Positions 11,137 to 42,392 are shown, counted from the first letter of the stretch. The stretch is 64,000 nucleotides of DNA from Lophium mytilinum (GCA_010093605.1 MU004197.1:124001-188000); one strand, 5' to 3'. Numbers and translations are program-made. The notes: a model not told the origin generated them from the sequence alone.

Positions 11137-11395
11137 CAAACCCGAACACCGGCTAGCCAGAGCACCGGGGAATACAAGAAATCTTCTTCTGCAAGAGGTG
11201 TCCGCAGTACTGCGTTCAAAACCTCTCATAGTATCGGAACTCCAAGTTTCCCCATTTTTGATTTTGTGGTGTAGTGTCCGGAATGCCACAACCCCTTCCT
11301 CTCCGAGTGATGTCCGCAACATTGCGTTCAAAATCGCTTGAAGAGTCAGGAGTCTGCCGGACGGTTGGCATATGTTGGGTGTAGGTGTTGGGGAT
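11137..11395 (-). promoter_or_regulatory. Class B structured 3'-UTR RNA element of G3
   Basis: Closing CCCCAACACC/GGUGUUCGGG, stem GUCCGG/CCGGAC, and two UUUUGAACGCA-N3/4-UGCGGAC hairpins. Preceded in mRNA sense by an A-rich tract (11413-11510). Confidence 0.7.
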
Positions 11396-11587
11396 TATTA
11401 GTCTTCTAGGCTCTTTTTTGTTTTGTTTTTTTGTTGTTTTTTACTTTTTGTCAGTTGTTTTTGTTTTTTTTTGTTTTTTGTTCTGTTTTTGTTGTTTGTT
11501 TCGTTTTTGGTGGTGTGTGTTGGGCTGCGCAATCGCATAATTCTCTCCATCGCCCTCGGAGCACTACATTCGGCCCCGCTTCTTCGT

Positions 11588-14500
11588 CTACTGAAGCTCC
11601 TGGAGCATTGCTTGCTCAGCTCCGTCTTCCCCTCCCCAGCCATCGTCGTCATCATCATCGTCTGGAACCGCGAAGGTGCTGTTGTCAGGCGCTGTGTCGT
11701 TCTCTGGCGCTGCGGCGAGGGCGGGCGGCTCTAGAGGAACATCCCTTTCCTCTGGTTCTTGTGGCCGCCCCTGCCTGGCGTTCGCCGCCTGACGATCACG
11801 TTCCGCAACGCGTTGAGCCAGAGTCTCGTGGTCAGAGGGCTCGGTGTCGCCCATAAGCTCAGCCTGCCTAGTCGCCTCTTCCTCCTTCTCCGACGCAACC
11901 AATTCAGCTTGCCACTTCTGAAACTGCCGCCCCGCTTCGTCTGCCGCATCCTGCGCGTCTTTGGCCTTCATTAAAGCCGTCGTACGGGCAGCACTGTTCC
12001 TAGCGTCACGAATCGCCTGCTCCGCGACCTTCTTGAGCTCGATTTGGCGCCGCTGCTCCTCCTCCGCTTCTTGCGCCATCTTTGCACGGTACGCTTTATC
12101 TGCGGCGAGGTCGCGTGCGAACTCCGGCTCTTTGAGCTTGTACTTGGCCTGGAACGCTGCGTTCCTAGCGCGCATCTCGGCCTCGGATCGTCGGGCTTCT
12201 TCCTCCATTGCGGCTTCATCTGCTTTCTGTTGGTCCGCGATATCCTTCTTGGCCTTGCGCATCTGCGCCGCGCCGATCGCTATCCGCCCCTCATCGCCCT
12301 CCTGTTGGATCTTCTCACCGTACCGCTGGTCGTTCCGTCGGTCCTCGTAATGGCCAGCTGCCCAGAAGCGAATCGCGCGCTCCTCAGCGTCGACGGCTAG
12401 ATATACCATATCTTCGTCGGTGAACAGCGGCGCGTCTTTGAATAAGCGCGCGCGGTTCTGGCGTTGGAAGACGTGTTCGTATAGAAAGTATAGCCCTTTC
12501 AGGCGGACGTCGTTTAGCCAGTGGGAATACCGTTCCTCCTTCCAGTCTTCAGGGTGATACCGCTCTCGCTGGAGGAACACTGGCTGAAGGCGGTCCAACG
12601 CAGAGCGCGTGCTGAATGGCAACGGTAATGGAGCAATCTGCGTCTCGCGATGCGGTGCCTCTACATTGCTTGACCGTGGCGTCTGCGTGGAAGCTTGTGG
12701 CATAACACTAGGTGGAGGGAACGTGGAGGCTACAACCGTTAGTATTTTACGTTTTCCATCTGTGTTGTTTGAACGTGACATACCATTAGAAGCTTCTGGA
12801 CGAGCATCAGGCGTGGGGGGCGCCTGTGCAAACTGCTGACGTCCGGGTTGGTTTTCCATAGCCTGGGACGTGCTATGAGGGGAAGATGGACTCTGGAGAG
12901 TAGGTTCCATGTTTACTTCCATATTAATGGGCAGAGGCGCAAATCCTGGAAGATCCTTCACAGAGAGTCTCCAATCCGCAAGACACCTAAGCCAGAGTGC
13001 CGAGTTACCAACCTTGACGCTACCCATTCGACGAGACAGCTTCTCGACCTCCTCATGGTATTTATCATAGCTTCCAGCTCCCCGTGCGTTCGCAATCTTG
13101 AACTCCATTGCGCGTGCAAGGGTTACCCGCTCTTCGTATGAAAAGTTGCCGTTGTTGGCAACACCAGCCTCAGATAATGTCTGGAAGATGTGGCCCAAGA
13201 CGCCTTGACGTATATCCAGATATTTACGGAGGGTCGGGTCTGCAGGGAACAGCTCCATAACCGAGTAATTCTGCGAGGAAAGTTGAGGCGCTTGAGGTGG
13301 CGTTGCGTCAGGAACGCTACCTCCGGATGCGTTGTCATCGACGCCCATCTGCTCATCGCCATCATTATCTTGAGTTTCCTCCTTCATTTTGACGTTGCCA
13401 GTTTCGAGGTCATCCCGGGACTGCGGATTTGGCTTGACAACACCTGCGCCTTGGAAATGGTCCTGAACCGTTAGGGCGCCCCCGGAGTGAGCGACCCCGT
13501 TGACTTCAACTTCCTTAGACTCGTGTCCCATTCCGTCCTTCATTTTGACGTTGCCAGTTTCGAGGTCGTCCTTGAACTGCGGGTTTGGCTTCACAGCAGC
13601 TGCGACTTGGAAGTGGACCTGACCCGTTGCGGCGCCCCCGGAGTGTGAGATCCCGTTCTCTTCAACATCCTTGGACACGTCGCCCATATCATGATCGAAC
13701 TTGTCTGTTGTGTTCTCGCCGTTTGCGGTCGCCGGGCCTGCTTGAGGTTGTGTACCCTGATTTGCGTTTACCTGCAGAGCACTAGACACAAACGGCCCTT
13801 GTTGGTTTACGAAAGGTGTAGCTCCTGAGTTGGATGGAGCTTGGTTTGCTGGGACTTGAGTTGCTGGGGCTTGCGCAGCTTGAAAGTCCATAGCATGCTG
13901 GGTGATGATGGGTTTGAAGCTAGGGTCAAAGGTAGAGCGAGGAACAGCAAGTCCGAAAGAACTCGGCGGAGCCGCTGGCCCACCCACTGGAGTCGTTGGG
14001 GCAGCCTTGGCCAAAGTAGACTTCGTAGCGTGCTGGGCGATGTTGGGGTTGAAGCTCGGGATGAAGCTCGGGGTGTAGCTCAATCGAGGGCGCGCAAGTT
14101 TATATTCGTTCACCGGAGTCGCCAACACACTCGCTGGAGTCGCCGAAGTAGTCTTGGGTGTTGTAGGCTCAAAGACCATGGCTTCTTGATTGATAGATGG
14201 GTCGCGAGGAAGTTTGAATTCAAAGCGCGCAGGACGGAGAACTATGTCGCAAGACCGAGTCGCCTGCCCACCGACGGGAGTTGTTGGCGCAGCCTTGGCC
14301 AATGTAGGCCGAGGTTTCAGTGCTTGCTTAGAAAGGGTTGATTTGACTCTAGCCATGTTCACCGAAAGCGGACGAGCAGAAACCGAGCCCCTCGAGCGAG
14401 TCGCTAGCTCGCTCACTGGAGTGATTCGAGCGTCCTTGGGCAATGTAGGCTGAGAGTCGATAGCTTGCCCAATGGTGTTTGATTCGGAACTAGTACGGAA

Positions 14501-17500
14501 TACGAAGCGAGGAGGATCAAGAACGAACTTGCTCGACGAAGTGGTTGGGGTAAAGTCCAGAGACTGCATGGGTACCGGACGGGTGCTGCTCTGCTCTCCA
14601 GCGATGTGAGGAGGGGTTGACGACGTGGAATCGGTGCCAGGAGTCCCAGATGGAAGCGAGCGATCTGAAGCCTCTGTATTTGAGCTCGGTCCCGTGGTCT
14701 CATTCGAAGTGCCCCATTTTGAGGGCTCTGTAGATCGTGCAGTATTGTCCCCGCCTTTGTCGTTGCCGTGAGAGCTTCCAGACGCCTCAGCACCCCCTTG
14801 ACCACCGTCAGCAGGGTCATCGTCATCCGCATCATCGCCATCTTTCTTATGGATACTTAGATCCTTGTCGTCAGCTAGTTCATTCCGCTTTTTGGCAGCC
14901 TGCTCATCCTTCTTTCGCTCATCAGGATCCCTGAAATCGTCATCGTCGATACCGCTAACAAAATCCTTCTTTTTAAGCGTGAAGAGTGTCCCTTCACAAA
15001 CAGGGAGAGGAATTTCGCTAGCGATAGCAATCCACTTTTCATCGGCCTCAGTAGTAAACACGAACTCAGGCGAGAGCTCTTGAAGGATAGCGAGTGACTG
15101 GCGCATGAAGTTTCCCTCATTACTCCAAAAAAGAGTCACCTTTGGCCCGAGAGCAAGCATAAGCAAGTCCTCAGCACTCGTAGGCTTCGCTAAGTGATAG
15201 CGTGTTCGGAGCAAATCTTCCGTTTGCCTCATATTAATAGCTCTCCGCCTAACCTTTTTAATCTTACGGGGCGGAGTATTGGATCCGGCAGTGGACTGAA
15301 GCTCATTCACGGTGTTCTCGCCTTCGGGTTCCTTGTTGTCATCTTTGTTGGGATTGAGCTGGCGAGCGGTGTCGTTGGACACGGTAGTTTGAAACCCAGA
15401 AGAGTTGGTAGCAGACTCCGAAGATGGTCCAGCCAGACCGGTCGATCTCGAGTGATCAGCGTGCTGAGCCGGTAGAGAAGTATCGACACCTGCACCAGTA
15501 GTAATGGCGCTGGGGGATGTCGCATTTAGAACGTTGTTCGTGTCCTCCTCAGTGGTATTCGTGAGGGTCTCTTGTCCTTTCGATGGTGCGCCCGCTCCAT
15601 CTGAACCGTGCGTCTTGACCTCAACCTGTGTGGAGATCTCATTCTTTGTCGAGACCCCATCTTGTGTCGAGATCTCACCCTGTGTCAGAACCTCACCGCT
15701 TGTCAAGACCTCACTGTGTGTTGAGACCTCACCGTTCAATATAGAGCTAGACGGTGATTTCGCTGGTGACTCTGACGACAACGTATCGGTGGCTAGGCTG
15801 TTCGGGTCATGGCTGATAGTGAGGCTGCTGGGAGGAAGCTCCCCATGTTTATCCTCGCCCTTAACACGTTCCACTATATCGGTGACATTGGTGTTGAGCG
15901 CAGATGCTAGGTTGTTTGCGGAGTTTGGTGAGCCATGGGTGAGAAGAGAGCTCATAACAGAGCTTGGCGAACCTGACTCTTCCGAGTTTCCAGTCTGGCG
16001 CACAGGAGAGCTGGGAGTGTTATCCACGGGATTCTGCGCAACAGCCTGGTTTGATTTAATGGCTATCGCACTACCTTTTCCGGGATTGCTTGGATCGTCA
16101 TCGCCATCTGAGTCGTCCTCTTGACCATCACTTTGATCCTCGGAGTCTTTCTTCCTTTCATCCTGGTCTGCACCTGCACCATGGCGGTTGGGAGAGTCAT
16201 CACCCTGACCTGCACCTGCACCATGGCCCTCGTCCTCGGGGGTACCATCATCATCACCCTGGCCTGCACCTGCGCCTTGGTCGTCGTCCTCAGGAGTGTC
16301 GTCATCCTTATCTTTGCGCGTGTCCGAGTCGGGTTCCTGAGTCTCATTCTTTTCTTCGAACGGGGAATAGACGTTAGTCAGTTGCTTCTTGATGTCTTGC
16401 ACATCTTCGCTCAGCGCGAGAACAAGTCCCTTCTCAGCCTTGGAGTCGACGTCGCCACGCATGATCTGGAGATCGTTGCTGAGCGCCGTGACAGCATCCT
16501 TCCCAGCTTTCGAATAAAGGATTTCGCTCATCCCCTCTACTAAAGTGATAACTTTATCGGTATCGGTCTTTGAAGCGAAGTGGCCATCAAAATTCTTGAC
16601 CTCTTGTTCCAGGATAGTGAAATCTTGCTTTTCAGCCTTGTCGTCGACGGCCTTAGCAAGGGCTTGGCTATCCTCCCGGAGAGTGGTGAGGTCTTGCGCA
16701 TGAGCCTTCTGTGAAACATCCGCAGTGAGAGTCTGAACAGTCTGTTCCAAGGCAGTCAAGCGTTTCTTGATGGCCTTCTTTGCAACATCAGCCTGCAAGG
16801 TCTGAACTGAGTTTTGCAGTCCAGTAACGTCATCAGCATCCGACTTCGTGAGAAGTTGAGCATTCGTATTCTGGACCTCTTGTTGCAGATCCGTGACGTC
16901 CTGCTTTTCAGCTTTCCGGGCAAGTTCCTTTGTGACCTTGCGACGAAGAACACCAACACGCCTAATGCTCTTGTCATCTTGCTCCTTCGTCATCATCCGC
17001 AGTGCTTGCTGGGTGTTCTTTGTCGCTCGGACAGCTTCCCTGCGAGAGCGCCTAGTCTGCTTTTGGTGCAAACGTAAAGCAAACCGTTGTTGACGAAAAG
17101 CATGATTCCGCTTCTCCACGGCGACTTTGGAGTCTTCGAGAAGAGTGATTTTGGCTTCAAGCGCAGCGACTACATTCTTGTCTGCCTTCGTTGCGATAGA
17201 AGCGTGCATCTTAGTGTCTTTGTCCTCGGACTCTTTCATAGACGCAAGTGTGGCTCGCAGCATATCCTGGCAGTCCGGATCGGCGAGGCACTCTTTGAAC
17301 AGGCTCTGACGCTCTGAGGTGGTGATCGAAGATTCGGCGTCGGTATGAATTCCCTTGGATAGTTTTTCATCGACGGACTTTTTGTATGCTTCGAAGTCAT
17401 TGTTCAAAGTAGTCAGGAGTGCAGATAGGCCTTCGACTGCTGTGCGCAATTGAGAGAAGTGCGCATGGTCCGACAGCTTTTCGGTCTCGAGGAACTTTGC

Positions 17501-18882
17501 GTCCATGCTGTCGATACCTTTTTTGAGCTGCTTGATAGTATCATGCTCCGCCAATTGGTCGCCTGAAAGAAGACTTTTGAGATCTATGCGGATCTTCTTG
17601 ACTTGCTTGTCAATGCCCTGAGCGGTAGGTATTAGGTTCCCGGCCTCGTCGCGCAGGCCGCAGATAATGTCTCGGAGCTTATTGACTTTCGTCACAAGGT
17701 TCTGGAAAGTCTGATGTTGGAATACAGCATCGGACGTTGGTCGCCTATTGATCTTTCTCGTAAGGGTTTCGATCTTGGGATCCAGATCAGTGGTCTTTGC
17801 GCGACTACTAATGTCTTTCAGGATGTGTCCGAACTTGAGATCCAGATCCTTGGTGAATCCTAACATGAACTGATTCCACATGATAGTCACATCCTCGGGC
17901 TTTGCTCGACCATCAATGTCTTGCTGGATTTCCTCCATCTTGGCACTGAAATCTTCGACCTTCAGACGGCCATCGATCGCTTTCTGGAACTCCTCAAGTG
18001 TAGAAGCCAGGTCTTCGGCATCCGCACAGCTACCAATTGCTTCCATGAGTTCAGCAATCTTGGTATCCCATTCGTCCTTGGAGACAAGATCATCGAGGTC
18101 CTGGATCGAACCCTGAGCAGCTTGTACGGGCTGGATGTTCGCAACGGGCGGAAGCTGAACGTTGACAGTGGCAGGCATCTGAGGATTCTGGGCAGGGATA
18201 GGCTGAGGATTGGGAGGTGGTTGCGCATTCGCGACGTGGCCTGCTAGACCAGCCCCAGCGCGCTTGGACTTTCTCGCGAGGTAGAGTAGGCATACAAGCA
18301 CCGCAATGACTGCGCCAAGGCCGATGGCGGTCGGACTGTCCGCGCAAAGACGTAAGAGATCGTCTTTGAGGAATTGAAAGCGTTCCTTCAGCATGGGGAT
18401 ATTGAGGCGCACGAAGAGCGCAAGGCGGTCCGCAAAGGTGGAGACAGGGGCCTGATTCAGCGGGAATTCTGGTGGGTTGGGATCGTGGCCAATCGTTGCC
18501 ATCATCGACGGATCGATCCAAGGGGCATGAAGACCGTTGGCTTTCCAAACTACACCCAAGATTGTTAGCCATAGATCATAACATACAAGAGGAAACACAG
18601 CATACCTTCTTCCAGAGCCGAAGCAAACTTTTCCGCTGGGCAATCAGTTAGAAATGGTGAATAGAGCAGATTTGAGCCGTTCTTGAGAATCAGATCCGCT
18701 TCCGCCATCGCAATTTTGAAGATCTCCTCTGGTACAATCGGAGGAGGTGGGTCGATGGTCGGATGGAATTCGCCCAGGAGCCACTTCATGAACTCCCGCG
18801 CTTTCTGTGGCGAATGGAAGATGGTTTCCAGGAACCATTGAAGGTCGCGCCACCCGTCGCGGAAAATATGGTCGAAGTCCAT
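11588..18882 (-). CDS. G3: array-family protein, ~2412 aa (TM helix, long coiled coil with ~23-aa KA-x-K-x-D repeats, disordered FxF region, two KIX-like repeats)
   Basis: Exon 18882-18606 (MDFDHIFRDGWRD...) joined by intron 18605-18550 (GTATGC..GCTAAC..TAG) to the 2351-codon ORF in frame (EE|VWKANG). Confidence 0.85.
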
Positions 18883-19984
18883 ATTTGTGAAGAGCGCACA
18901 GCGTGCAGATGCAGTATTGTTAGCAGTAAGGGGAGGGTACCTGTCAGGAACAATGTTGGGAGTGGTTGGTGTGGGTGTGGTTGCTGGTTGCTGGTTGGTG
19001 GGGTGTGTAGGTTGGAGGACGGAGGATGGAGGAGAGAGGGTTTGGAAAAGGCGGACGGGGGTTTTGGGCCTGTTGACGCCAAGAAAACGCAGGCGACGTT
19101 AGTGAATCGAAAGAGTCCGCTGAAGGTAATGTTATTCACTAAACAGGAGATAAGCACGGTTTCACGGTACATCATGTCTAGAGAGTATTGTATAGTTATG
19201 ATGACTGCCTTCCCGGTACGAGGAAAGGCCTGCTGTTGATCTGAGGGCCTCTAATTGTGTGATTTGCCCGTATGCTGCCGGCGCTTGGAGTACCCCCTGA
19301 GGCTGGGCCCGTTCAAACACAATGCCAGGGCCTTGAAGCCGTAAATTGGAGGGGTTCTGTGTACTTCGCTCCCGGGGACATATGAATCGTATGCTCTCTA
19401 TCTCGCCAAGTTTGTGTCGATGGTTTGCAAGTCTCCTGACGACGTTTGAGGTGGCTCCGGCCCTTCTGCCGGCTGATGGTCTGATACCGGATACAAGCGC
19501 AATTATCAGCATGATCAACTTGTCATTTGGCTTTCCGATATTTTGAATAGTGCAGACAGTCTTCAAGAGTCTATGAGTGCGTGCAAAGGCTGAGGTAATC
19601 AAGGCAGGATTAGAGGGCTCAGAATAGGATACCACTTTTCGAGAGATAAACCTGAAACTTCAGATCGCACTCTGTATATCACATCATATACAGCATCATC
19701 CATTAAAGGCTTTCAATATCGCCGCAATGAAGGGAGCATCGTTTTGCATTTCGTGTAGTACGCTGAAGCCACAGAGCCACTGCTAACATTGTTGCAAGAC
19801 CCTAGCATATCCTCACCATATCACATAGTCACTTCATTAGGTTCATCATTATATTAAGTTTCTTTGGTTTTTCTCCCTAACAGTACATCGGCACCATTTT
19901 CATCTCCACCGTGTCATCAACCCACGCAGCCTAGCGGCTTCCATCATTAAAATGCCCATATCAAAACCCACAAGATTGAACACA

Positions 19985-20270
19985 AAACCCGACACTATCC
20001 AGAGATTGTCCAAACCCACAAAGCACCTGTCTCCTCAGGAGTGTCCGCAAGACTGCGTTCCAAACTCCCCAAAGAGGTCAGGCTCCAAGGTATCCTCTCC
20101 TTTGATGGCGCGGTGCAGTGTCCGAGACAATAAAGCGTCTTTCTCTCCAAGGCGTGTCCGCAAGACTGCGATCAAAACCCCTCGAAGCTCCCGAAACCTA
20201 ATCATGACTCGTACACATGTCCCGACACCATCCAGCCAGAGTGTCCGGAACTTCAGACCCCTCTCTCGGG
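19985..20270 (-). promoter_or_regulatory. Class B 3'-UTR element of G4, rearranged and without the A-rich linker
   Basis: Two GUUU-GAWCGCAG-UCU-UGCGGACAC-type hairpins. An extra distal fragment (CCGACACCATCCAGCCAGAGTGTCCGG, 20222-20248) lies right next to the stop codon. Confidence 0.6.
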
Positions 20271-20280
20271 CCGTCTCTTC

Positions 20281-21814
20281 TTAGCGTTGGTCCTTTAAAG
20301 AGAGCTCGATAGCCAATTTTACCTGCTCTTCGTCGAAGTCGGGGTCCTCTACCTTATAGTCATGACCTCTCGGCGGTGGAATATTACGGACGCGAGTAGG
20401 ACGACGTGTGCTGGTAGTCGATGCAGGAGGCGTTGTTGAGGCAAATACAGATCGGCCGGAATCGATCTCCAGTTTATCCATGCGCTCCATAGTCTCGTTG
20501 ACTAAGCTCGATAACGACAAGTACTGCTCACTGTCGAGAGTACGTAGCATCTTGATAACGATATCGGGCAGGAATTCCTCTGTCAACTCTCGGACGCAAT
20601 CTCGTTGCTCGCGCTTCACCCAGTCCATAGCTTTCTTAGTCATAGTCCTGTGGGTTCTATTGCGCGTGGCGACAGACATAACAAATCGTGACAAGTCCCG
20701 GTGGTGGCGACGCTCCGACTTGATCTGCGTAAGTTTGACCTGCACCGATTGCTTACGCAGGGTGTCGAACCGCTCGAGACCTTGCTTGACGAGTTTGTCT
20801 TGCTTGTCTTGTGATCTCTTTAAAGCCTGGACTATCCCACGGAGCTCGGCAGCCTCTTTCTCAGCAGCCTTCTTGGCCTGTCTCTCGCCTTCGAGATGTT
20901 GTTTCATTTCCGAGAGGGCTCGGTCGTAGCGTTCATTCAACGTAGTCAACTGGGACTCGAATGCGGAGAACCTTCGATTGAGCGCAGAATCTTCCGCCTC
21001 GTCGGCCTTGCTGGTAGTTATAGCGTTCCCAGCGTGCTTGCTATCATGGTTTGTTGTGACGTCGTAATGCCCCTCAGTCGGACCGTACTGCTCACTGGTG
21101 CCCGAAGAAGCATTGACACTGACACTGCCATTCTTTTCGTCCAAATATTTGTCGTCTTGGTCATGGTCACGGGTTGCGGCCTCATCGAAGGTGCTCTCCT
21201 CTTGCGCTCCAAATTTATGACTCGAGAGCCAGATAGAGAACAAGGGGGAGAACCAGAAATAGAATCGGGCAATGAGCCTGATGAAGCCGACACAGGCGAA
21301 GAGGAAGGGGAAGACTCCCGCTGGGTTATCGTTGCAGTACGCTCGAGTAGAGTTCCATGTGATCAGTCTCGGCGCACACGTCGGCAGGGCGTGGTAGGGG
21401 AGCAATGCTTCATGGTGCAAGACGAGGTGGGTTGTTGTCGGATCGTTCCACGGGGCGAACATCTCATTGACCTTCCAGACTGCAGGAAAAAATGTCAGCA
21501 AAAGACATCGCGCAATGGGAATATCTACACTTACCATTCTCGAGTTCGTCGAGGTACTTGATGTCCGGTGAAATATTTAGGTAGGGGGAGTATGGCAGAT
21601 TGGATGAGTTTTTGGCTATAACGTCGGCAGTGCTGAACGTAATTTTCCAAGGCGCGGGCGGCGGGGGTTCGATAGTCTTCGGATGCGGGAGGATGCCTTG
21701 CAGGTACATGATGAACCTGCGGAAGCTCTCGGACGGATGCAATGCAAGGTTTAGGCCATAGCGCATGTCGCGCCACGTATCCCGCCACGCATCCCGAAAG
21801 ATGCTGGGGGCCAT
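20281..21814 (-). CDS. G4: short paralogue of G3, ~492 aa (TM, coiled coil, C-terminal UIM-like motif, no KIX-like repeat)
   Basis: Exon 21814-21535 (MAPSIFRDAWRD...KNSSNLPYSPYL) is clearly homologous to G3 exon 1. Intron 21534-21480 is at the same position (EN|VWKVNE). Protein ends DEEQVKLAIELSLKDQR. Confidence 0.85.
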
Positions 21815-22699
21815 CGCTCTGAGTAGACGCGCAGAGCTTGAGCGCTGTTAGTAGTGTATTGGGGACAGCTGTCGTGATACTGTAAGGGTAGGAGTGTGTC
21901 GCAGTGATGCGGCAGGTGGATGGTTGGGAGTGGAGAAGAGACACAGGTGTGCCGACTTACGATGTGGAAGGGCCAGAGGAAGAGTTTGCTCGGCAGCAGT
22001 GGAGGTGAATGACCACAACCGCTAGCAGGCCCAATTGATGGCGAGTGCGCAGAACAGTGCCAGAGATTTGCAGTGGAGGCAGAGCGGAACACCCTGGGGA
22101 GTGCGTCTGGACGGACGCGATCACCTTGACGAGTGTACCAGTCGGGATAGAGAGCGGAGACAAGCTACACGGGACGAGGATGCGGGTGATGATCTGGTGG
22201 GATCAAAGGAGGATGTGGAGGAAGAAAAGCCTGGAGACTGCGGGAGGAAGACCTCGAGGGAGACTGCGAGCTTAGTGAGAATGACGATGGTGGGCTGGCT
22301 TGCTCTTCGATACACAGAATTTAGTGAATAAGATTACTCTAGCGGCTGAATTTAATGTGCCTCAGCAGGCGTAGTTTGCAACCACGATACGGGTACGCTT
22401 TTAACGGTACGCCATCTATTAGGGTCAATTGAAAGGATACTTTCATTGATATTACGAAACGATATATCCTCATTACACAATGCAGATGCTATAATGCTAT
22501 TAAGGTGGATCATACGCGGACAGACTGCAACAAACAAAGCGGAACCAGTATATGACACGTATTTCTTTAAGCCGCAGGATCTAATGTGTCACAATCATAA
22601 AAGCCGAGGAAACAATGTCTCTCTCTTTCGAAGAGCAAACGATGTCGAGCGGGATGCCACGAGGAGATCTAGCTAGGTAAGCGGTCATAGTTGCGTAAG

Positions 22700-25000: not shown

Positions 25001-25079
25001 TGCGCACCCGCGACACGTATACCTAGCACCGCGTCACTATCGCTCTATGTGAAACGTTTCTGGAGCTTATCGAGAACCA

Positions 25080-26067: not shown

Positions 26068-26241
26068 ACTTTCCAGATTCCTTTTTACTATTTTTTGTGT
26101 CGTTTTTGCTGTTTTTTTTGTTTTTGTTGTTTTGCTGGGTTTTTCGGTTGTTTCTGGGTTTGTTTTTGTCGTTTCGAGGCCTTCATCCCCCCTTCCTTCG
26201 GCTTACAGCACCGAACACTCGTAGGCAAACCATCCTCGCTC

Positions 26242-31522: not shown

Positions 31523-32866
31523 ATGCCACCAAAAAGCATTGGCAAAGCTGATAGTGCTGAAACTGATCTTGAAGTTAACGATGCTTTAGCAATTGGCGTG
31601 ACCTCCATCTCCCTGAAGACTGACCCTGCGTCTGAGGCGAGAGAAGTGCGCCGACGAGCTGCCCAGCTCTTTAGTAGCCGTATTCCTGCAGCTCAGGATG
31701 CTGCGTCCGTCCCCCATCTAAAAGGAACCTCCCCATCTGCACTCCCCGCCTTTGGTACGGCGACCCCAACTCCAGCGCCCCGAGCTCTAGCGTACCCTAA
31801 CCTGGTTCCTACCAAGCTTGACGGCGTTGATCACTTGACTCGCCGCCAGGAACAGCTTGAAGCCATCTATGCCGCGCTGGAGAAGGCTAATATTCGGTTC
31901 AAGAGCAACTCACCTAAGGAATATCTGATCGAGATTGCTCGGGCCAGGGAAGATATCTACACGCAGAAGCGCCCATTCCATGCACCACCAACCGCCTACA
32001 CCGAAGAGAAGTACCTTGATCTCATGGAGTACGAGATCGCAAAGAAGATCCATGGCGCGAACAAGAAGTCCTGGAACAATCTAATTGCGAAGCACTCAAA
32101 GAACCAAAATGCCGTCCCTACCTATGCGCCGCCAACGGCCGCGCAAGTCCCTCTTCCTATGCAGCTCATTCCCAGTGCTGTTCAGAGCAAGATTCCGCTT
32201 TCATTGCGCCAGAAGCATCTTGATGCGCTGTTCGAAGCCTACCAGAATGCTAACAACAAGCATCTTCGCTTTGGCCATCCGATCCTCCTCGAATCAGCAG
32301 ACCTGATCAACCTCTCCCGACAAGCTGAAGCAGCCCGTGCTATAGTTCCTACAGAGACAGACTACAGGATTGGCCTGGAGAACGACGTGAAGACGATCCG
32401 CGACTTCAAGACCCGCGACTGGTGGCGCGCCGTCGCCAAATTCCTCCGCCCGTTCCAAGTTGCCGCCCAAGCCCCCGTCCGGCCAGAGCTCCTCCCACGC
32501 GATGTTAAAGGTATCGATATGAGCACCACCCGCCAGAATCGCCTCAACGCCCTATACAACACCCTTGGTCATGTGAATGAGCGTCATATCCGACAAGGCA
32601 AACGTCTTCTCGGGGATGCAGCAGTCGTCACGATAGCCTCGATCCTAGAAAAACGATCGGTTCGTACACACAGCCGTGTTCGCACAGAGGACGAATACTT
32701 GGAAGAGATGCAGATGGCTATCGAGTCATATTGGCATTCTACTAAGTCTACCTTGTTTTCGCTCATTCGGGAATTTGAACCGACGCGGAAGGAGCTACGG
32801 AAGAGGCAGGACGAGGAGGCCGAGAAGGAGGCCGGGATAGTGTCCGAAGAAACTACGATGAACTAA
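31523..32866 (+). CDS. G6: 447-aa soluble paralogue made mostly of three KIX-like repeats
   Basis: Uninterrupted ORF. Repeats RRQEQLEAIY..N..LIEIARAREDIY, LRQKHLDALF..N..LINLSRQAE and TRQNRLNALY..N..VVTIASILE are collinear with the G5 C-terminus. Confidence 0.85.
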   Translation: MPPKSIGKADSAETDLEVNDALAIGVTSISLKTDPASEAREVRRRAAQLFSSRIPAAQDAASVPHLKGTSPSALPAFGTATPTPAPRALAYPNLVPTKLDGVDHLTRRQEQLEAIYAALEKANIRFKSNSPKEYLIEIARAREDIYTQKRPFHAPPTAYTEEKYLDLMEYEIAKKIHGANKKSWNNLIAKHSKNQNAVPTYAPPTAAQVPLPMQLIPSAVQSKIPLSLRQKHLDALFEAYQNANNKHLRFGHPILLESADLINLSRQAEAARAIVPTETDYRIGLENDVKTIRDFKTRDWWRAVAKFLRPFQVAAQAPVRPELLPRDVKGIDMSTTRQNRLNALYNTLGHVNERHIRQGKRLLGDAAVVTIASILEKRSVRTHSRVRTEDEYLEEMQMAIESYWHSTKSTLFSLIREFEPTRKELRKRQDEEAEKEAGIVSEETTMN

Positions 32867-34380
32867 TAGGGTCGATTCAGCGACGATAGTGACGGGGAGA
32901 ATGGGAGCGGAGTGAGAAGGGGAACGAGGCCTATGATGCGCGGGGAGGAGTGGCAGTTGGCGACGTAAAGTACATGCTACGCTAACTCATGAGGAAAATA
33001 CTGCGCCTTGATTCGAGTAATATGGCGCAATCCTCATCTCTAAGCATTTGTACGGACAGCCTTACAGACGAAAAGGCTGAGTCTACCGCTGCCGCTGCGA
33101 CGGGAAATTCTGCCAGGACTCAAGAGTTGATGTCCTCGTAGCTTGTAGTGTAGACATAGACGATTAGATGAGAAACCACCATAGTAACGAGTGGTTGGAA
33201 CCAAAAATCTGATAATGCATTGAACCCAATGCTACGCCTGTGTTTCTTCAAAGTGACTGTAGCCTTGTCCCTGTATAACTCCTCCTTTTCCTTTCCGACA
33301 TATTGGCGCACAACGTGAATTTCACCTCTTGAGGTAGCCGTTCGGGTGGGGAGGCCTAGTAATGCACAGTCCAAATACAGCTAGACCTAGGGATTCATAT
33401 CCCTACGCAACCAAAGATGAAATATGCATTGTCGAGGTTCAAGTAAGGTTCTCTGCTGTTTCTCCTACCCGTATCCTTCCCGGTGTTTCTATTACTGCTT
33501 CAATAGCTAGATGGAAGTGCTCCGCTAGCATATCCAATCCCTGAAGGTCGCGTCCTTCCGGACGGGGCATGCAACTGGGACGCAAGTCACGGCGTGTGCA
33601 CTTCCTGTATATGCAAAGTGTATTGATTCTACCTAAAACAAAGGAAAGTTCTTCAGCTCATGCAGGACGCTTTTCTTGCCATATGTGATTGCTCTCACAC
33701 ATTTGAAGTGCATCGTAGATGTTATCGTAGCGTTCTCTTACCTGAAGCACTTCTTACAGTCGCATCGACCGGGCAAGACTGCTGTTCAATCGGAGTAACA
33801 TGGGTGATCTCAGCCTCAAGCAGCTAATTCCGCGCCCCACCAAGTAGTCACAGTAATAGAAAGCATAATCATAGATCCTAAAGGTCCAAAGGTCCTATAA
33901 TACAAGCCGCACCAAGACCGCCGTCATACTGTATACAGAAGTCCCAAAGCGCCAAGTCCTTATATCGAACAGCTAACTTGTCTAGCAGCACACGCTAGGG
34001 CCGCACCGCCCTCCTTCTCTGGCCCACTTCATTATAGCTAGACGCGCCTTCCTCCCCCACGATTGGCTGTGAGACTGCTTTTAGAACGTCATGAAAAGTT
34101 AGGTTTTCGAGTTTCCTCGTTTTTGAGGCAGTGTCTCAGCGGTACGCCAGATCATTGACAAGCACTTGCTGTAAGGGGAAATAGGGCGAAGAGAAAAAGG
34201 AACGAGAAGGAAAAGAAACTGCCCAAATACAGTAAATTAATAAAACGTACAGAAATAGAAAGAAACAATCATGTACACCAAACTCACTTCATCAGCCATG
34301 CACGCAGTAAATCATCATGAATAGTTTTTTCGACCTAGCATTGCTACTCCGACTAGATCAGCCCAATACCATCTTCGCGA

Positions 34381-34522
34381 ACCTAGCACGCGACCCCATC
34401 TATCAGGAAAAAGGTCTCCAGCCCCCGCCCAATACCCGTATGATGCATTGTCTCGCGCACAGCTATTAGGCTGGCGCATGACTAGCACCATACATTGAAA
34501 CGAGGGCTGGTGTGTGCTGGCC
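34381..34522 (-). promoter_or_regulatory. Class A structured 3'-UTR RNA element of G7
   Basis: Same fold as 4275-4426 with compensatory changes (GUAUGGUGC/GCAUCAUAC). Loops CUAAUA and CUGAUA. Confidence 0.75.
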
Positions 34523-34659: not shown

Positions 34660-37600
34660 CTACACCCACTTCCTCAGCATCTTCTTCCACTGCTTCTCCG
34701 TCAACTCTTCAATGATTCCCAGTGCTTCGCCGCTGGCATCCGTATACTCAGACTCCCGATCACCTGGCTCCAAATCCGAATCCGAATTCAGGACATCCGT
34801 CACCACCTCCAGCTCGCGTTGAAGCGCGATAGCCTGCAGTATATCTAAGCTAACACCCGTGCCGTGGGTGTTGTTGGCCGAGTTGAGGAAGTCAAGGAGC
34901 TCGTCCAGCGCGTCCACACGGTTTATATGCCAGCCGCCGATCTCGTCGTGGTCTTCTGTCACCACAGGCTTAAACTCATCCGGCTCGGGCTCAGACTCGG
35001 GCTCAGATTCGGGCTCAGCAGCAGGCTCAGGAGCGGGCTCTGGCGCGGCATCAATCTCTCTTCGGCGCTTGGAAGGGTTGTCGTTGTTGTAGTGGTCACG
35101 GTCCCAATCTTCGTTGCTCCCCCCTGCGGCACCCTCGCCAGCGTCTCTGTCTCTTGGAAGAACAAGCTCATCGGGGTCAGTTGTAGTATCGGGGTCAGGA
35201 ACGTAGGCTTGGAAGTTGGCGTCCACATCCGGCGGTGGAAGGGTATGGTTGCCCCAGTTCATGGTCCCCGCAAGGGGCACCTCTTCCCACTCCGTCTCAC
35301 CTGACCTATCGGACCCGTCTTCATCTGGCGTTGCGAGCGCAAGGAGCTCCTCATCGAAGTCGTGGGAAGCAAAAGCTTGTTCATATTCTTCGGGAGCGAG
35401 AGGCTGTTTATCTTCGTACTTATCCTCGTCCGAATCTGAGGTCTGGCAGTCGCCGAAGTCAATCTCATCGTTCTCGTCATACTCGAACTCCGGCGGGCGC
35501 GGCGCGCGATATGCCGTTGGAGAGTTGCTCCGCGACTGACGGGGCGAGAAAGTGGGTTCTGAGCCCGAGTCGGAACTCCTCGGCGATGGGGGTGGTGAGT
35601 AGTCGCCTGCGGAGGCGGTGTCGTTGGCAAGGCCGTTAGACGGGAGGTTGGCGAAGCCGTACCCTGGGTAGCCTCTAGCTGGAAGCGCTGTTGAACTTTC
35701 GCCATTGTTGGTATCACCTAGTTGTCCGTCGTAGTTTGGGCCGCCGTACATAGAGGCCAAAGACCTTGGATGTGTCAGGTTCTGGTCGAAGGTCTGAGGC
35801 TGGGCTCCTAGGGTCGTAAGGGGAGGAGGGGAAAGCGTCATGTCGGTATCCTCTGGAGCTTCTAAAGGCCCCGACTGCCCGGTAGTAGTACCAGGAGGGT
35901 CGTAGACGCCATTCTGAAGATCGGTACTAAAGCCTGGGCTATTCATAGCATCGAGCGCCGCGGTGAAGCTCATGTCGATATCAAACTGGGGTGCGAACGT
36001 TGTAGTCATATCCAGTTCAGCGTCGTTGACAGCCCCATCCGCAGCCTCATCCCTCATAGTGGTGTCAACTTCGCCTTCGCCGGGAGTCTGTCCAGTCGGG
36101 GTGACACCTTGCATGCCTTCCCCAAAGGTATAGCTTGTCGAACTGCTACCTGTAGGGGGACCCTGAGCCTCCTCCGCAGATGTTGAAGGACCGCTATTTG
36201 ATAGAGTCACGGGAGTGCTCGTGGGACGACATGTAGTCTGAGTGGTTGACAATTGTCCCTGATTACGAGCTCGTCTGAGAGGGGCAATCTTTCTACGAGG
36301 AGCTGTCTCTATGACAGGAACAGTCTCTTTAGGTCCGTCCTCATCGCGTTTGTCTCCGTCGTTAGAGTCCGACAACCTATCATCTTGACCCCTAGATTCA
36401 TCGTCTTGACCAGTCGCGGACGTGGGAAAAGTTGTGTTACTCTCTCTGGCAGAAGTCATCCGAGGCCCTCCGTTCTGGCCTACCACGAAGTCTTTAGTGG
36501 CCCGCTGGCCTCCGTTAGCGGTTGTGGTGGTGTCAGTGTGAGGAGCAGCGGCTGCGGAGGGAGACACGGAAAGGGTAGGAGGAGCCATTGATACTGGCAC
36601 ATTTGCTCCTGTTCTGGAAATCGCGTCGACCATATCGTTAGGCTGAACACTGGAAGCTGGTGTATGAACGGGGCGAGAAGCCGCCGATGATGTAGAACTT
36701 CCGGATATTGGAGCTTTAGTCCTCTTAACTCCTCGGGCTCGAGCAATCTTGCGTCCCTTCAGCTCCTCGGAAGTTGCCTTGAGACTCTCATATGTTGCTG
36801 TATCATCCTCATCAGGATCAAGTTTATTCACGTTTCTTTGATCAAGACGGGTACCACCTCGCTTCGTAGCGCCGCTGCTTTGCTGGCTCATCATGCCAGA
36901 AAGATCAACAGGACCGGCATTGGAAGGAGTCGGACGTGCCTGGGCCAAGGCGGGAGCCTCAGTAGTTATGGTTGGAGGGGAGGCGCTTGTGCTCGTTGGG
37001 GTGGCATTAGAGACATGAACAACTTCATCTCCTTCAACCTTCTTTGCAGTTGTCGGAGTTTGTGAGACTTGTGACGATGACGCTGCCACAGCTTGAGACG
37101 ACGATGGCTCAGCATTTAGTTCCGTGCTAGTTTCGGTCGCTATTGGTGGATAGATGAATTTGAACAGCGTCGGAGCCCCCTCTGGCTTAGCTGTAGTCTC
37201 TGCCGCGGCTTCTGGCTTCTTCACCAACCCGGAGATATCGAACGTAGCCAGGTTGAGAGGCGGCGCAGATTGCGTGGTGGCGCGAACGCGCGGAGTAGCC
37301 GTTGTCTCGGAAGCGAGAGGAGCTGCGGTCGAGAAGAGCTTCACGGGAGCTGTCGTGGCGGGTAGTCCGGGACGGGTTGCCTGAGGCGTAACCGTAATCC
37401 GCGATGTAGTTGTAGATGCCGCTGATGTTGACTTGGCCGGTTCATCAGTGACAGTCGGTGTAGTTGGAGCTAGGACCTCAACATTGTTGGCAGTCGAGTT
37501 TGTAGGACCGTCCCGCAGTACGGTCACTACAGAGGAAGTAGACGTCGCTCGAGAGCGGGTATTGGGGCCCGTCTCAACGGCGTTAGAAGCGGCTGTAGAA

Positions 37601-40600
37601 GTCAACGGCCCAGCTGCATCATCTTCCGCAGTCGTGAGAATAGCTGGGGTCGGTCTTGCAACACCAGCTCCAGGTTGACTAATGAACCTAGACAGATCGA
37701 TATGACCTCTGTCGTCGTTGGAAGTAGTGACAGACACGGATTGTAGTCGAGACAACACCGAATCAACAGTCTCATCAGATTCCGAACTAACGACCCCCGC
37801 GCCGCCTTGACCAGCCTCATCTTCGTCGTCGTCCTCGCTGTCTGATTCTGACTCGTCTTCCTCACGACTGGATTCTCGCCATTGATTGTCGCCAGAAGTC
37901 GATCTAGGCGGCTTGAAGTCTTGATTTGCGGCGGTCCCGTTGTCAGTTTGAGGGCGATCATGACCTGCTGAGGTCCTACTGTCAGCGTTATCGTCTGACG
38001 CCTGTTGATCATCGTCAACAGCGGTATCAGATGCGCGATCTTGAACAGTGTCTTGGGTGGCAGAATCTGGTCTATTCGGCGAAGATCCTGGAAGCGCAGA
38101 GGTATCCAGCGTCGCTCCTGTAGCATGAGGCGGAGAACCAGATGAGATAGGTGTGACTGTCTCCAAAGGCACTACCACAGTTTCAGAAGCGATACATTCC
38201 TCACGCTTATTAGCACGAGCGTTTTCCTCCATAGCTTGATGCACCTCCTCGCACTCATAGCAGACCGGCTGGCCGTCGAAAATCTTGGTGGATTGCGTAG
38301 CCTTAAACCTCCCGCCATGAAGGAAACAGGTGACTACCCGACCGTTTAGCCATGAGGATGAGGGACTCCCAGTTTTAGTGAGGGTATATATGGTTGGACG
38401 GTATACTGGTGGAGATGGAGGTGGAGGTGGAGGGGGTGTGCGAGGACGAGGACCCTCCTGCTCAAGGACCAGTTCCTCGGACGCCCTGCCCTTCCCCTTC
38501 CCCTTGTATCTTGGCCTAGAGTCATAATCTGGTTCATCTGTAACCCCTTCCGAACTATCTTTCTCATTGTCCTGAGTGTCCCGGGACTCAGAAGGAGCGT
38601 AGTTTGCAGCATCTGCTTCAGCTGCAAATGTATCAGTTTGAACAGTTTGATCTTGTGCATATGAGGTATTCTGGTCTTGATCAGGGAGATTATCAGGACT
38701 AGAGGGAGGCGCGCATTCCTTATCCTGAGGTGGAAGCTTGTATGAACCAGGAGGTGGCGTACAATCCCGATCCATCTTTGGCGGAGTCGATGTGGAGGGG
38801 GGCAAAACTGAACTAGGCGATGAAGAAGAAGTAGTAGGAGTAGTCGGCACCGCTTGGGCAACGTTGAACCTAGCCAACGCTTGAGCGATCTGTTTTTTGA
38901 TATCTTTTTCCATAGCTTCTTGCAAAGCCGCAAAGCGCTCTTCAATTTCCCGGTCTTTCTGAGCCTGTTCGGTCCTAAGTCTTGCCAGTTCTTCAGCATG
39001 GTCTTTTACTTGCTGGTCACGGTCCGCCTCGAGCGCAGCGACTATTTTCGTCAACGCCATGATCCGACGTGCTTGGGCCTTTATATTGCCATCTAAGCCA
39101 AGGGCAGTCGACAGTGATGAAGCTCGATCTTGTGCAGCTTGCTTCTTGTGCGCTTCGTAGTTTTCCTCGAGGAGACTGAGGGACTTATCGAGGGAGTCGA
39201 CCTCGGTTTTGCTAGCCCTCTTGTTGAGTGCGACCTGCACTCTGTCGCGCAGCTTGTTCAGTTGTGCTTTCCAATCGTCCACACTTGCTGACGATACATC
39301 CCGTGATGTCGAAGGCCCAGCTTCGGCGGATTGATGACTAGTCTTCCGCATCGTCTCGAACTCTTGCTGTAGTGTGGCTATCGCGGCTTCCAGATCGTGA
39401 AGTTTCCGGGAGTACTCTTCTGGTGAGGCGGAGCGGGAGTGAACCTTCAAGAAGCGCGCTTTCGATCGATCTGACACACTGACTGATCTCCGGCCTCCGA
39501 ACGTAGTGCGCGCGAATCTGTTCTGTCGCGTTGTTTCTTCATCCAGGCCAGCCGTGTCGAAGTCGTGCTGTGTCGCACGTCTCGCGGGACGCTGCGCAAC
39601 AAAGCTGTCAATGAGGTCCCAGAGACGCTCTTGGTATTGCTGACTGTCGAGCAACATGGCAAGAAGCGCGAAAATAATCCTCAATGGGTCAGGCGTTGGC
39701 TTGGTGGGGCGCCAAAGGACGACTGCGTTATGAATGGAGGGGGTGGCCACGGGTGTATGCGCTGGGGGAGCAGGCGAGCCAGGAGGGCCTGGTGGACCTG
39801 GAGGACCTCGCGGGCCGGGGGGTCCTTGTGGGCCAGGAGGTGACGGTGGCGCTGGAGGTGGAGGAGGTAGCCCAGGTGGCCCTGGTGGGCTAGGTGGAGG
39901 AGGTGGAGGAGGCGGAGGAGGCGGAGGAGGCGGATGACCACCATTGTTGTTGTTTGGAGGGGGTGCTAGGGCATTCGGTGGAAGAGCTTGCCTACGGCGC
40001 ACGAGTAACCAGCGGATGAGATTGCGACAGAATTTCAAGATCAAGTATAAGCCATAGAAGGCCAAGGACCAGACAACCACGCTGAACAGTAGTTGTAGTG
40101 GTGTGAGGTTGTATTCCACATCTGGCATGAAGCGGCGAGCGGTATAGCGAGGTTTCGTCGCATTGATGCGTAAGGTGGCTAGAAGGAGTCGTATTAGCAG
40201 GAGAATACCTTGAACAAGTTATAGAACTTACGGATATCGAAGAACTTTGAATTTTCGAAACCGCCAACCAAATGTTCACCAGTGGAGACAGGGACGTCTT
40301 CAAACTCGAAGGGATTGGCTTCCACTGTCGCTGTCTCTATGATCTTCGTGGTGACGCTTGTCAAGGGAGGAGGAGTTGCAGTTGAGATGAAGGCTCGCTT
40401 TGTCGTGATCGGGAACGCCCTAACGCATGTCGTGTCGCCCTTTGAGCAGGGAAGATTGACCGTAGGTTTATATTTGCGGGTCTCCCAAGGACGGCCGGTG
40501 TTGATCCAGAGACGCAGAGCCTTCTCTACAGTCATGTATACATATACCGTTGCTCTGACCTCCTTGTCCCAAATGATGTACATGGCGCGATCAAACGCCA

Positions 40601-40640: not shown

Positions 40641-41379
40641 GGTGGAGACTTGAACGAACAGGCTCGTCGTCGGGATTGTGTACAGAATGCGCGGACCAGG
40701 CGCAGAGAGAGGTCTCCAATAGATACCAAGAATGTGCACATAGGCCGCAGTGGAATTTGCGGTGTGGTGTGGTGGGGATTGTAGGGTGGTATCGAAGGAG
40801 GTGGGTGGTGGAGAAAGTAAGTCTGGGAAGTGCGAGGGCCTTGTTATGGATTAGCAGCCGGGCACAGGCACATCGAAACGACGCTAAGAGCTAAGCAGTG
40901 AATATAAACCTACTGCAGGGTCTCGAAAATGACGTCAAAGACGAAAGGGGCGTCATGTAAACAAAAGCACGGAAGCTCGGGGAGCGCGCTAAAGATCTAA
41001 TCAATTCACTGAGATGTTCAGGCACAATACTGAGCCATCAAATTAGGGCCCCGGATATACCACCGCTCCAAATACGATCTTGATCACTCGATACTACTGT
41101 GAGGAGGACCCTGTGTAGTCCGTTTGAGCTACGTCAAAAGGTAGGCTATTCAGCGCTCATGCACATACGAAGACTGGCCACATGCTCCCCCGCCCAATCT
41201 TGATAGTGGGTAGCTACAGCTGAGGTTTTCTCTCCGTGAATTGGTCCCTAAGACTAGACCTCTAGATAACCTTTTCAACGTCCTTAGACATTATACAACA
41301 CTATGATATATTTTGTCTACTTCCTACAGCCTCCTGAAGGACCTCCATAGACGCTGAAATTTTCGAATTACATATCAAA

Positions 41380-41960
41380 GCCAGCGCACTGTAAATTAGA
41401 GTACTATTTACTTGACTAAAAGTATGTTACTTGGGGTCCCCTGGACAGTGGTATGATGAGAGCAGAAGTGAAGTTAAAGCAATGGCATACCGGACCGTCT
41501 GAGCTTTTGACCTAGTACTGAGTGCTATGGGACATGTGTGGGCATTCCGCGCATACGCTTGGGGTATCTTGATAGGCTTTCGAAACTCTGAGTATGACAG
41601 CGATGCATCGTGAACATGGCTGCCGTTTGACTAACCAAAGACTTGCCGCTTGGGGTACTCCTTACATTGGCGTTAAGTGATCAATATTAATTTTAAAGTA
41701 GTGGAACATCAGTCTTCCTAATACTTCAACCTATTACCAGAGTATCTCTTGATATATTAAATCCCTTATACTGTATATATAAAATAGAGTAAAGTATTTC
41801 TAGACACCCCACGCATCTACTGGGGGTATCCCGATAGAGTTCTTGATCTCTATAAACGATGCATAGCTTGATGTACTGGATTTCTAGCTGCCATTTGACT
41901 AACTATAGACACGCTTACCGGGGTCCTCCTTACAGCGGCGCAACACGAGCACATAGTAGA
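41380..41960 (-). repeat. Degenerate copies of the ~163-bp repeat family
   Basis: GGGGTMCYCCT..ACAKTGG-type cores near 41433, 41652 and 41920. Further single copies near 10745, 33745, 47509 and 57755. Confidence 0.6.
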
Positions 41961-42184
41961 TTTTATGTCACCGATTTTGGTATCACTCCAATGGTCACAG
42001 ATGTCAAAGTACCATCAGTGTTTAGTTATTTTTATATTTTTTTGTAGTTTCAATCTTTTCTCCTGATGCGCATCACCCCAAGCACCCAATCCCCATATAA
42101 CAAAAGAAACAAGGCCGTAAAATCCACCACACACACAGAGAGAAACCTGCCCGCCGACGCCCCTACACAGGAAAACTGATAGAC

Positions 42185-42392
42185 AAACCCCAACACCATC
42201 TAGCCAGAGTGTCCAGACTACACGGTGCCTTCTTCTCCAGGGGGGATCGCAAGCCTGTGATCACACCTCCGTAAAGCGTCAGAGCACCAAGTTTCCTCCC
42301 CCTTGGACGGGTGAGGCAGATGCCTGTCAAACCGACCCAAGCAAGATTCTGCTGGACGAATGACGAGAACTGGCTAGACGTGCTGGGGTTTG
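42185..42392 (-). promoter_or_regulatory. Class B structured 3'-UTR RNA element of G8
   Basis: Closing stem AAACCCCAGCAC-GUCUAGCCAG / CUGGCUAGAU-GGUGUUGGGGUUU, stem GUCCAG/CUGGAC (covaries with GUCCGG/CCGGAC), two GC hairpin arms. A-rich linker at 42393-42455. Confidence 0.75.

Follow-up and report, generated by a model that had tools for sequence, protein, structure and literature searches.

Genes and class B copies of the window

The window analysed here, a 64 kb stretch of the Dothideomycete Lophium mytilinum (MU004197.1:124001-188000), contains seven minus-strand open reading frames (ORFs) of 418-2351 aa, arranged head to tail and named G2, G3, G4, G5, G6, G8 and G9. Four of these are followed by a full copy of a repeat of 230-300 nt, called class B, which is the subject of the present analysis. 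Copy 1 (c1, 11119-11419) lies behind G3 (11588-18643, 2351 aa, no Pfam family), copy 2 (c2, 19965-20266) behind G4 (20281-21537, 418 aa), copy 3 (c3, 25830-26086) behind G5 (26242-30705) and copy 4 (c4, 42167-42413) behind G8 (42508-46740, 1410 aa), all on the minus strand. The elements start 168 (c1), 14 (c2), 155 (c3) and 94 nt (c4) past the respective stop codons. A decayed remnant of class B (34044-34151, minus strand) starts 508 nt past the stop codon of G6 (34660-40128, minus strand), downstream of an intact element of a second kind, class A.

The presence of class B behind G3, G4, G5 and G8, put forward in an earlier reading of the sequence (hereafter the original prediction), is borne out by profile, alignment and pattern searches, with matching positions. 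With the four copies as its training set, an nhmmer profile recovers all of them, on the minus strand of the window, and at E≤10 gives five hits in total, the single untrained one being the remnant (E 3.2e-5). With BLASTN, c3 and c4 align at 72.4% identity over 163 nt (E 1e-16) and c1 and c2 at 69.6% over 148 nt (E 1.3e-9), while a 25-nt hairpin pattern with at most three mismatches has four matches against an expectation of 0.00. The remnant, in which the tip hairpin is destroyed, gives no match at E≤10 to the covariance model of the long arm described below.

The copies are assembled from a small set of parts. In c1, a 5' closing half is followed by two long arms, forming a 112-nt direct repeat, and by a 3' closing half; the copy was also picked up as the repeat families D11 and D16. 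Copy c3 is a three-way junction in which a closing stem (with UAGCCA and GUCCGG/CCGGAC) meets a short and a long arm. The same order is found in c4, where the closing stem has 36 pairs (34 Watson-Crick and 2 G-U), including GUCCAG/CUGGAC. In both c3 and c4 a related short arm replaces the first long arm, with a 47-nt indel relative to c1 and c2. The long-range stem that closes c1, c3 and c4 is formed by inverted termini of about 35-40 nt. Copy c2 consists of a 3'-tail segment and two long-arm units 113 nt apart; since its first part repeats the 3' tail and the 5' closing half is missing, it is a rearranged tandem of 2.3 units. Class B is non-coding: none of the reading frames stays open throughout the copies, stops interrupt each of the six in c1 and c3, and the annotated protein of G5 ends at the stop codon of the ORF itself; a coding exon was rejected on these grounds, together with the 47-nt indel.

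Pairing in the arms and the closing stem

The long arm is a hairpin of about 75 nt with six occurrences, two in each of c1 and c2 and one in each of c3 and c4. Its basal stem of 5-6 bp leads through an internal loop to a stem of 9-11 bp; further towards the tip come a 5' bulge of UUU(G), a G-C pair and, finally, a CGCA/UGCG stem with its tetraloop. The two arms of c1 are located at 11279-11362 (tip CGCA-AUGU-UGCG, 81.0 bits with covariance model R1) and 11167-11250 (tip CGCA-GUAC-UGCG, 88.6 bits with the same model), those of c2 at 20123-20206 (84.4 bits) and 20011-20093 (77.3 bits), that of c3 at 25878-25962 (87.3 bits) and that of c4 at 42213-42295 (79.2 bits), all on the minus strand. The tetraloop is variable (AUGU, GUAC, and GUCU and GGCU twice each), and the CGCA-N4-UGCG tip stem is identical in five of the six arms; the arm of c4 has the tip CACA-GGCU-UGCG, with one A-C mismatch. 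The succession of G-UUU-GA and a GC hairpin, part of the original prediction, is indeed present in the six long and two short arms, with the exception of c4a2, which reads GGUGUGAU. When the long-arm covariance model is run over both strands of the 64 kb with filters off, the six training arms are found, and besides these the only matches with E<0.01 are antisense readings of two of them.

Pairing was tested on an alignment of the six long arms, comprising 21 consensus pairs and 124 cells, against 500 column-preserving shuffles. The arms are paired in 94.4% of the cells, as compared to 87.4±1.7% after shuffling (0 of 500 shuffles reach the observed value), and when the partners are slid relative to each other, pairing falls to 43.5-58.1%; the consensus structure was derived from the same few related sequences, and these counts are suggestive, short of proof. 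Both-sided changes are found in 7 of the 21 pairs (reached in 1 of 500 shuffles) and in 10 cells (0 of 500). RNAalifold applied to the four whole copies keeps the second arm and gives 7 both-sided changes among 41 pairs. The short arm is located at 25952-26023 in c3, with a UUUGA bulge and a GGCGC-AGAU-GCGCC tip, and at 42284-42351 in c4, with an AGGCA-UC-UGCCU tip (both minus strand). Between the two, 16 homologous pairs can be compared, of which 8 stay the same, 1 differs on one side only, 5 differ on both and 2 are broken; these pairs were counted by script, the MAFFT alignment being off by one base. Covariation, which the original prediction expected to see, is thus present in the hairpin arms, and pairing kept through compensatory change is what a structured cis-element of a 3' untranslated region (UTR) should display; in the closing stem this signal is weak.

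For the closing stem, scoring was confined to the 36 columns paired in c4. The number of paired cells is 36/36 in c4, 24/33 in c1 and 22/32 in c3, with the 5' half missing from c2. The long closing stems reported earlier for the complete copies are therefore fully realised in c4, but given the broken pairs of c1 and c3 they are not a conserved feature. The stem shows three both-sided changes, among them the change from GUCCGG/CCGGAC to GUCCAG/CUGGAC; this covariation, also noticed in the original prediction, is confirmed, with column pair 50/244 reading GC, GC and AU.

Folding of the whole elements was compared with that of dinucleotide shuffles. The folding energies in the gene sense and antisense orientations are -93.1 and -90.6 kcal/mol for c1 (z -3.51 and -2.39), -100.4 and -99.9 kcal/mol for c3 (z -5.45 and -5.01) and -99.6 and -91.2 kcal/mol for c4 (z -5.33 and -4.63). 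Folding beyond that of shuffled controls, on which the earlier reading was made to depend, is thus found for these three copies but not for c2, which is no better than shuffles (z -1.38 sense and -0.40 antisense). In the arms, strand information comes from the wobble pairs. An A-C cell on one strand is a G-U pair if the opposite strand is read, and on the gene-sense strand the long-arm pairs are G-U in 21 cells and A-C in 5, which departs from equal shares with p 0.0025, and with p 6e-4 from the share of 0.48 that the window's remaining intergenic DNA predicts. The G-U pairs recur at the same columns across the long arms. The excess favours the gene-sense strand. The long arms have a structure conservation index of 0.69 in gene sense and 0.49 in antisense, with mean minimum free energies (MFEs) of -28.2 and -22.9 kcal/mol, respectively.

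The 3' regions, class A and the host genes

Conservation around the element was assessed from pairwise alignment scores among the regions of c1, c3 and c4. Within class B the scores are 42-77.5, against 6.9±2.9 for shuffles. The last 250 nt of the coding sequence (CDS) score 12.5-13.5 (null 11.3±3.7), which amounts to no alignment, and the 250 nt downstream of the element score 12-21 (null 9.5±2.6) and are barely alignable. By these alignments, class B is the sole conserved island within otherwise unalignable 3' regions. The four full copies and the remnant, five of five, are oriented in gene sense and lie at most 616 nt past the stop codon of a family ORF; for five independent random insertions, sense orientation within 620 nt of family stops has a probability of about 2e-5, even if insertion is confined to intergenic DNA. 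Such improbable random placement implies that the element either was duplicated with the gene and kept as its surroundings decayed, or inserted with a strict preference for site and orientation. Target-site duplications were not seen in the aligned flanks of c1, c3 and c4, where old ones could have decayed.

Between the stop codon and the element an A-rich tract of 55-115 nt is present before c1 (11408-11523, A/C, repeat family D1), c3 (26085-26166) and c4 (42404-42459, A/G-rich), all on the minus strand; it is absent before c2. A similar A-rich block is found 100-205 nt beyond each of the four copies, containing AAUAAA or AAUAUA in three of them. These candidate poly(A) regions are located, on the minus strand, at 10924-10955 for c1 (with AAUAAA, about 175-205 nt beyond the copy), 19838-19876 for c2 (from GGAGAAAAA to GAAACUUAAUAUAAU), 25668-25713 for c3 (from GUGAAAAGAUU to GAAACUUCAUAAUU) and 42018-42066 for c4 (GGAGAAAAGAUUGAAACUACAAAAAAAUAUAAAAAUAAC). 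If they are the poly(A) signal regions, as seems likely, class B would lie inside the 3' UTR.

Class A elements (4231-4425, 34325-34522 and 48010-48214, minus strand) are located behind G2, G6 and G9, respectively. They are preceded by a U/C-rich tract and form a multi-hairpin fold with 53 consensus pairs, many of them conserved G-U pairs. Their MFEs are -99.9, -84.9 and -79.7 kcal/mol in gene sense and -78.7, -65.2 and -56.1 kcal/mol in antisense, about 21-24 kcal/mol better in the sense orientation, and by these modelled folds class A is clearly strand-specific, reading in gene sense. The absence of sequence similarity between the two classes, claimed in the original prediction, stands, as neither profile matches the other class, and so does the equivalence of position, the non-homologous class A occupying the same place behind three other family genes. 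G6 has an intact class A and only a decayed class B, a single case that fits the two being alternatives. The purine-rich (GAAAA-like) tract at 42404-42459 before c4 resembles the reverse complement of the CUUUU-like tract at 4435-4475 before the class A element of G2, which may be a simple-repeat coincidence or a hint of RNA-RNA pairing between the classes.

The host ORFs have little in common. No Pfam family was found in the long ORFs G2 to G9, BLASTP among the family ORFs is nearly empty, protein similarity being almost nil, and a protein atlas search for them gave no usable match. A module of about 65 aa, R-x3-L-x2-[IL]-[YF]-x2-L-x3-N ... RE ... TE-x-Y, is present in G2, G5, G6, G8, G9 and the plus-strand ORF 31523-32866 (at 5119-5331, 26623-26835, 27052-27264, 31820-32719, 34732-34944, 42577-42789 and 48875-49516), and G3 and G4 share the N-terminal motif VWK.N...APW.DP. 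The assignment of the hosts to one gene family in the original prediction is therefore reasonable through the shared module or motif, but loosely defined. Among 1.84 billion representatives, a profile of the module retrieves no more than 8 proteins (E≤0.001), 4 of them encoded in the window. The ORFs 26242-30705 (G5) and 48326-52978 are 100% identical to hypothetical proteins annotated in Lophium mytilinum, with the same stop codon for G5, and a word-based search finds self-matches only and no further homologs of either. The closest homolog of G2 (4504-8877) from outside the window, P0032, has an identity of only 33-37%, whereas the neighbouring RhoGEF gene (54941-56821) encodes a protein 76% identical to that of Mytilinidion resinicola; the family thus evolves very fast and is narrowly distributed. 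P0034, a second protein from outside the window, matches the carboxy-terminus of G9 at 42% identity, so that at least two family genes have homologs elsewhere. Some of the proteins have a hydrophobic stretch near the amino-terminus. In-frame tandem repeats of 105-156 nt are present in the long ORFs (13375-13686, 26269-26550, 43220-43573, 49850-50164 and 60484-60906) and are typical of rapidly expanding disordered proteins.

Other repeats occupy the same intergenic regions. A 163-nt unit forms about 6.7 tandem copies behind G2 (3041-4152) and is dispersed over 10717-10832, 25511-25591, 33735-33781, 41019-41138 (reversed), 41418-41520, 41626-41709 and 47482-47572. The dispersed copies are single and partial, lie about 700-1500 nt downstream of most family genes and have almost all one orientation; a satellite, a transposable element relic and a regulatory block are candidate explanations. 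An inverted repeat of 107 nt with 82% identity (23934-24038 and 24521-24627), located in the low-GC part of the long gap between G4 and G5 (GC 0.44 at 22001-24000), may be a transposon relic.

Interpretation and relation to known systems

The reading that we favour, with middling confidence, sees in class B a cis-element with RNA structure, located in the 3' part of the sense transcript, inherited together with the tandem paralogs and kept by selection. Its hosts would be the transcripts of a lineage-specific tandem array encoding long, disordered proteins, and transcription would run through the element. Class B would have been duplicated together with the gene, selection having maintained its pairing while coding and flanking sequences diverged beyond alignment. 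The functional core would be the long arm, one or two per element; in the complete copies the whole is closed off by a long-range stem whose quality varies. Copy c2, which retains both long arms despite the loss of a closing half, fits such a core. The near-invariant UUUGA bulge and CGCA/UGCG tip would provide a docking site for an RNA-binding protein, the flanking stems being kept by pairing alone; alternatively, a factor binding double-stranded RNA might read the arms. The fate of the mRNA, be it stability, translation, 3'-end formation or localisation, would then be set alike for all paralogs carrying class B. The "address tag" of the original prediction is one guess among these several fates. 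That prediction as a whole is partly supported: the element is real, non-coding and conserved, with compensatory changes in its arms; the long closing stem is not a conserved feature, and c2 is a rearranged fragment.

Several observations weigh against the favoured reading. With four copies and six long arms from one genome, the covariation statistics have low power, and related sequences may beat shuffles without any structure. Taken singly, two of the six long arms are clearly more stable than shuffles (z -6.04, for the arm of c3, and -2.27); the remaining four, with z between -0.5 and -1.0, are not. The tip stem is without covariation (4 of the 5 pairs of helix 3 are invariant) and would be explained equally well by a DNA-binding site. 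The architecture differs between copies, through the 47-nt indel, the duplication of arms and the rearrangement of c2. The whole elements c1, c3 and c4 fold about equally well in antisense, which shows that their build is palindromic but lets thermodynamics make no choice of strand. The excess of G-U pairs becomes marginal (p 0.052) when the arms' own G+U-rich composition is taken as the null; the claim that G-U pairs mark the mRNA strand, correct for the arms, fails for the closing stem (6 G-U and 5 A-C cells) and for the whole-element MFE structures, which have no sense-strand excess. Covariation in the closing stem, which has decayed in c1 and c3, is weak, with 81.2% of the cells paired and 79.1% after shuffling (21/500), and at 13 of the 24 pairs of its long helix broken cells are the sole departure, a pattern resembling that of a decaying inverted repeat. 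Taken together, the alignments suggest that the arms are constrained and that the closing stem looks like such a repeat. Finally, the poly(A) region might already be the A-rich tract just upstream of the element, in which case class B would not be part of the mature mRNA.

The symmetry of the elements raises the question of a mobile origin. Class B could be a MITE (miniature inverted-repeat transposable element) or foldback repeat, or the relic of one, that inserted near genes or was co-duplicated with them, its hairpins being a palindromic by-product whose pairing is refreshed by template switching. We consider this unlikely, although much of the gross anatomy agrees with it: the size of 230-300 nt, the inverted termini (some 35-40 nt long, and perfect in c4), the near-equal folding of both strands, a closing stem that has decayed differently in each copy, and a variable internal build with tandem arm units; the dispersed 163-nt repeat family lies in the same intergenic regions. 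Strand-symmetric decay or repeat-induced point mutation would not give an excess of G-U pairs on one strand, yet in the arms G-U and A-C cells stand at 21:5. Stems can be created and repaired by template switching during replication, without selection, as reported (PMC8794818). Copying from a template would make perfect complements, and the G-U pairs recurring at the same columns argue against it. The compensatory changes are found in the internal arms rather than the termini, the three complete copies have no target-site duplication, no copies are present elsewhere in the 64 kb on either strand, and the gene-sense placement of all five occurrences after family stops would require the coincidence calculated above if insertions were random and independent.

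Two other explanations address the hairpins at another level, as DNA or as RNA acting in trans. A DNA-level palindrome, which could be a protein-binding site (for instance for a dimeric factor on CGCA-N4-TGCG), a terminator or insulator, or a cruciform-prone recombination site driving duplication, would account for the CGCA/TGCG core that is identical in five of the six arms without covariation, for the location between tandem genes of the same orientation and for the symmetry of the whole element on both strands. A sequence-specific DNA site has no need, however, of flanking stems that change sequence and keep pairing; the excess of G-U over A-C is a property of RNA, G-T being a mismatch in DNA; and in three of the four copies the element lies 94-168 nt from the upstream stop codon but at least 2.2 kb from the start of the next ORF. 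We hold the DNA-level explanation to be very unlikely. Equally small credit is given to a precursor of small RNAs (miRNA-like or siRNA) or a separate non-coding RNA that would exert family-wide control in trans by RNA interference. The long imperfect hairpins, with arms of about 30 bp and the 36-pair closing stem of c4, and the sharing of the same sequence by four genes would suit such a precursor, but ARAGORN detects no tRNA-like unit and Rfam no family. A weaker variant of it, a plus-strand RNA polymerase III (Pol III) or SINE-like (short interspersed nuclear element) unit ending in a T-rich tract, would explain the T-runs that directly follow c1, c3 and c4 on the plus strand; c2 has no T-tract, the B-box-like GTTCAAAACC is not kept in most arms, and the G-U excess favours the minus strand.

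If class B is indeed transcribed, it would represent a case in a filamentous fungus in which an orphan gene family is conserved mainly in a structured RNA module at its 3' ends, and the compact hairpin of class B, with a near-invariant bulge and tip, could be used as bait for the binding protein. Together, transcribed classes A and B would constitute a natural swap experiment for post-transcriptional "tags". In a distinctly improbable extension, the two would be unrelated, interchangeable 3' tags of a rapidly evolving, species-restricted family and the best-conserved part of each of its loci. A gene would need either, and the one it carries would decide between two fates of the mRNA, for example through separate pathways of localisation or decay, or through small RNAs derived from the hairpins that balance the dosage of the family. 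Should class B turn out to be the relic of a foldback transposon, the finding would be an ordinary one, yet would show that repeat-derived hairpins can mimic covariation.

Searches for known RNA families gave few leads. Rfam 15 has no matches at the gathering score in the whole window, and at E≤1 the region 10000-27000 contains only an unrelated sR7 match inside a CDS (E 0.13). ARAGORN finds no tRNA-like genes. A scan of metagenomes for the pattern of hairpin plus tail returned 16 loci, none of which matches the element profile at E≤10, making them chance matches. We know of no published description of class B in the literature on the species, on Dothideomycete MITEs or on fungal structured RNAs, supplements aside.

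Among the RNA classes considered, the element for nuclear expression (ENE), known from PAN, MALAT1 and transposons, is built around an internal loop with a U-rich strand on either side and needs an A-rich tract downstream. Class B likewise has an A-rich genomic tract beside a stem-loop near the 3' end, but its bulge contains only three nucleotides (5' UUU), the opposite 3' side reads GAC and the A-rich tract lies upstream, and an ENE-type triple helix was rejected from the loops and bulges. A tRNA-derived SINE carries a tRNA-like head with A and B boxes and an A-rich or simple-repeat 3' tail; such a SINE or Pol III unit was dismissed, as ARAGORN finds no genes, class B has its A-rich tract on the 5' side and most arms lack the B-box-like match. 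H/ACA snoRNAs have a hairpin-hinge-hairpin-tail structure with ANANNA and ACA boxes. In class B the ends of the element pair in a closing stem, unlike those of H/ACA RNAs, and with no Rfam match this class was also set aside. A Rnt1-type AGNN tetraloop and a Smaug CNGG loop do not agree with loops that read AUGU, GUAC, GUCU and GGCU.

Three groups of elements are closer. With MITEs and foldback elements, class B has in common its small size, terminal inverted repeats (in c1, c3 and c4), self-folding, location near genes and diverged copies; it differs from MITEs in the missing target-site duplications, the fixed orientation and position, the internal compensatory changes and the strand-biased G-U pairs. 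SIDER2 of Leishmania is reported to be a retroposon-derived repeat that is present in many 3' UTRs and affects mRNA turnover in cis (PMC5509151, PMC2943621); its two hallmark units of about 79 nt stand in tandem, and their secondary structure is needed for mRNA decay. SIDER2 elements are described there as degenerate trypanosomatid retroposons with hundreds to thousands of copies, whereas class B, its copies counted in the window only, has no retroposon features, an A-rich tract on its 5' side and no tRNA-like head. By analogy, SIDER2 may illustrate the way in which a 3' element with two units of repeat origin could work; it is taken as a model, not as a relative.

Conserved 3' UTR structures have been reported in Ascomycota for the genes of a thioredoxin, a RING-finger protein, a thioesterase, GLY1 and MET13 (Gao, Jones and Rivas 2021, PMC8216456). 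As described there, they are, like class B, multi-stem structures supported by covariation, located just past the CDS, found by comparative analysis and of unknown function. Each of them is tied to one conserved orthologous gene across hundreds of species, whereas class B is distributed over the paralogs of one tandem family in one genome, in variable builds, with the non-homologous class A as an alternative. Class B is, in this comparison, a new family of a known general kind.

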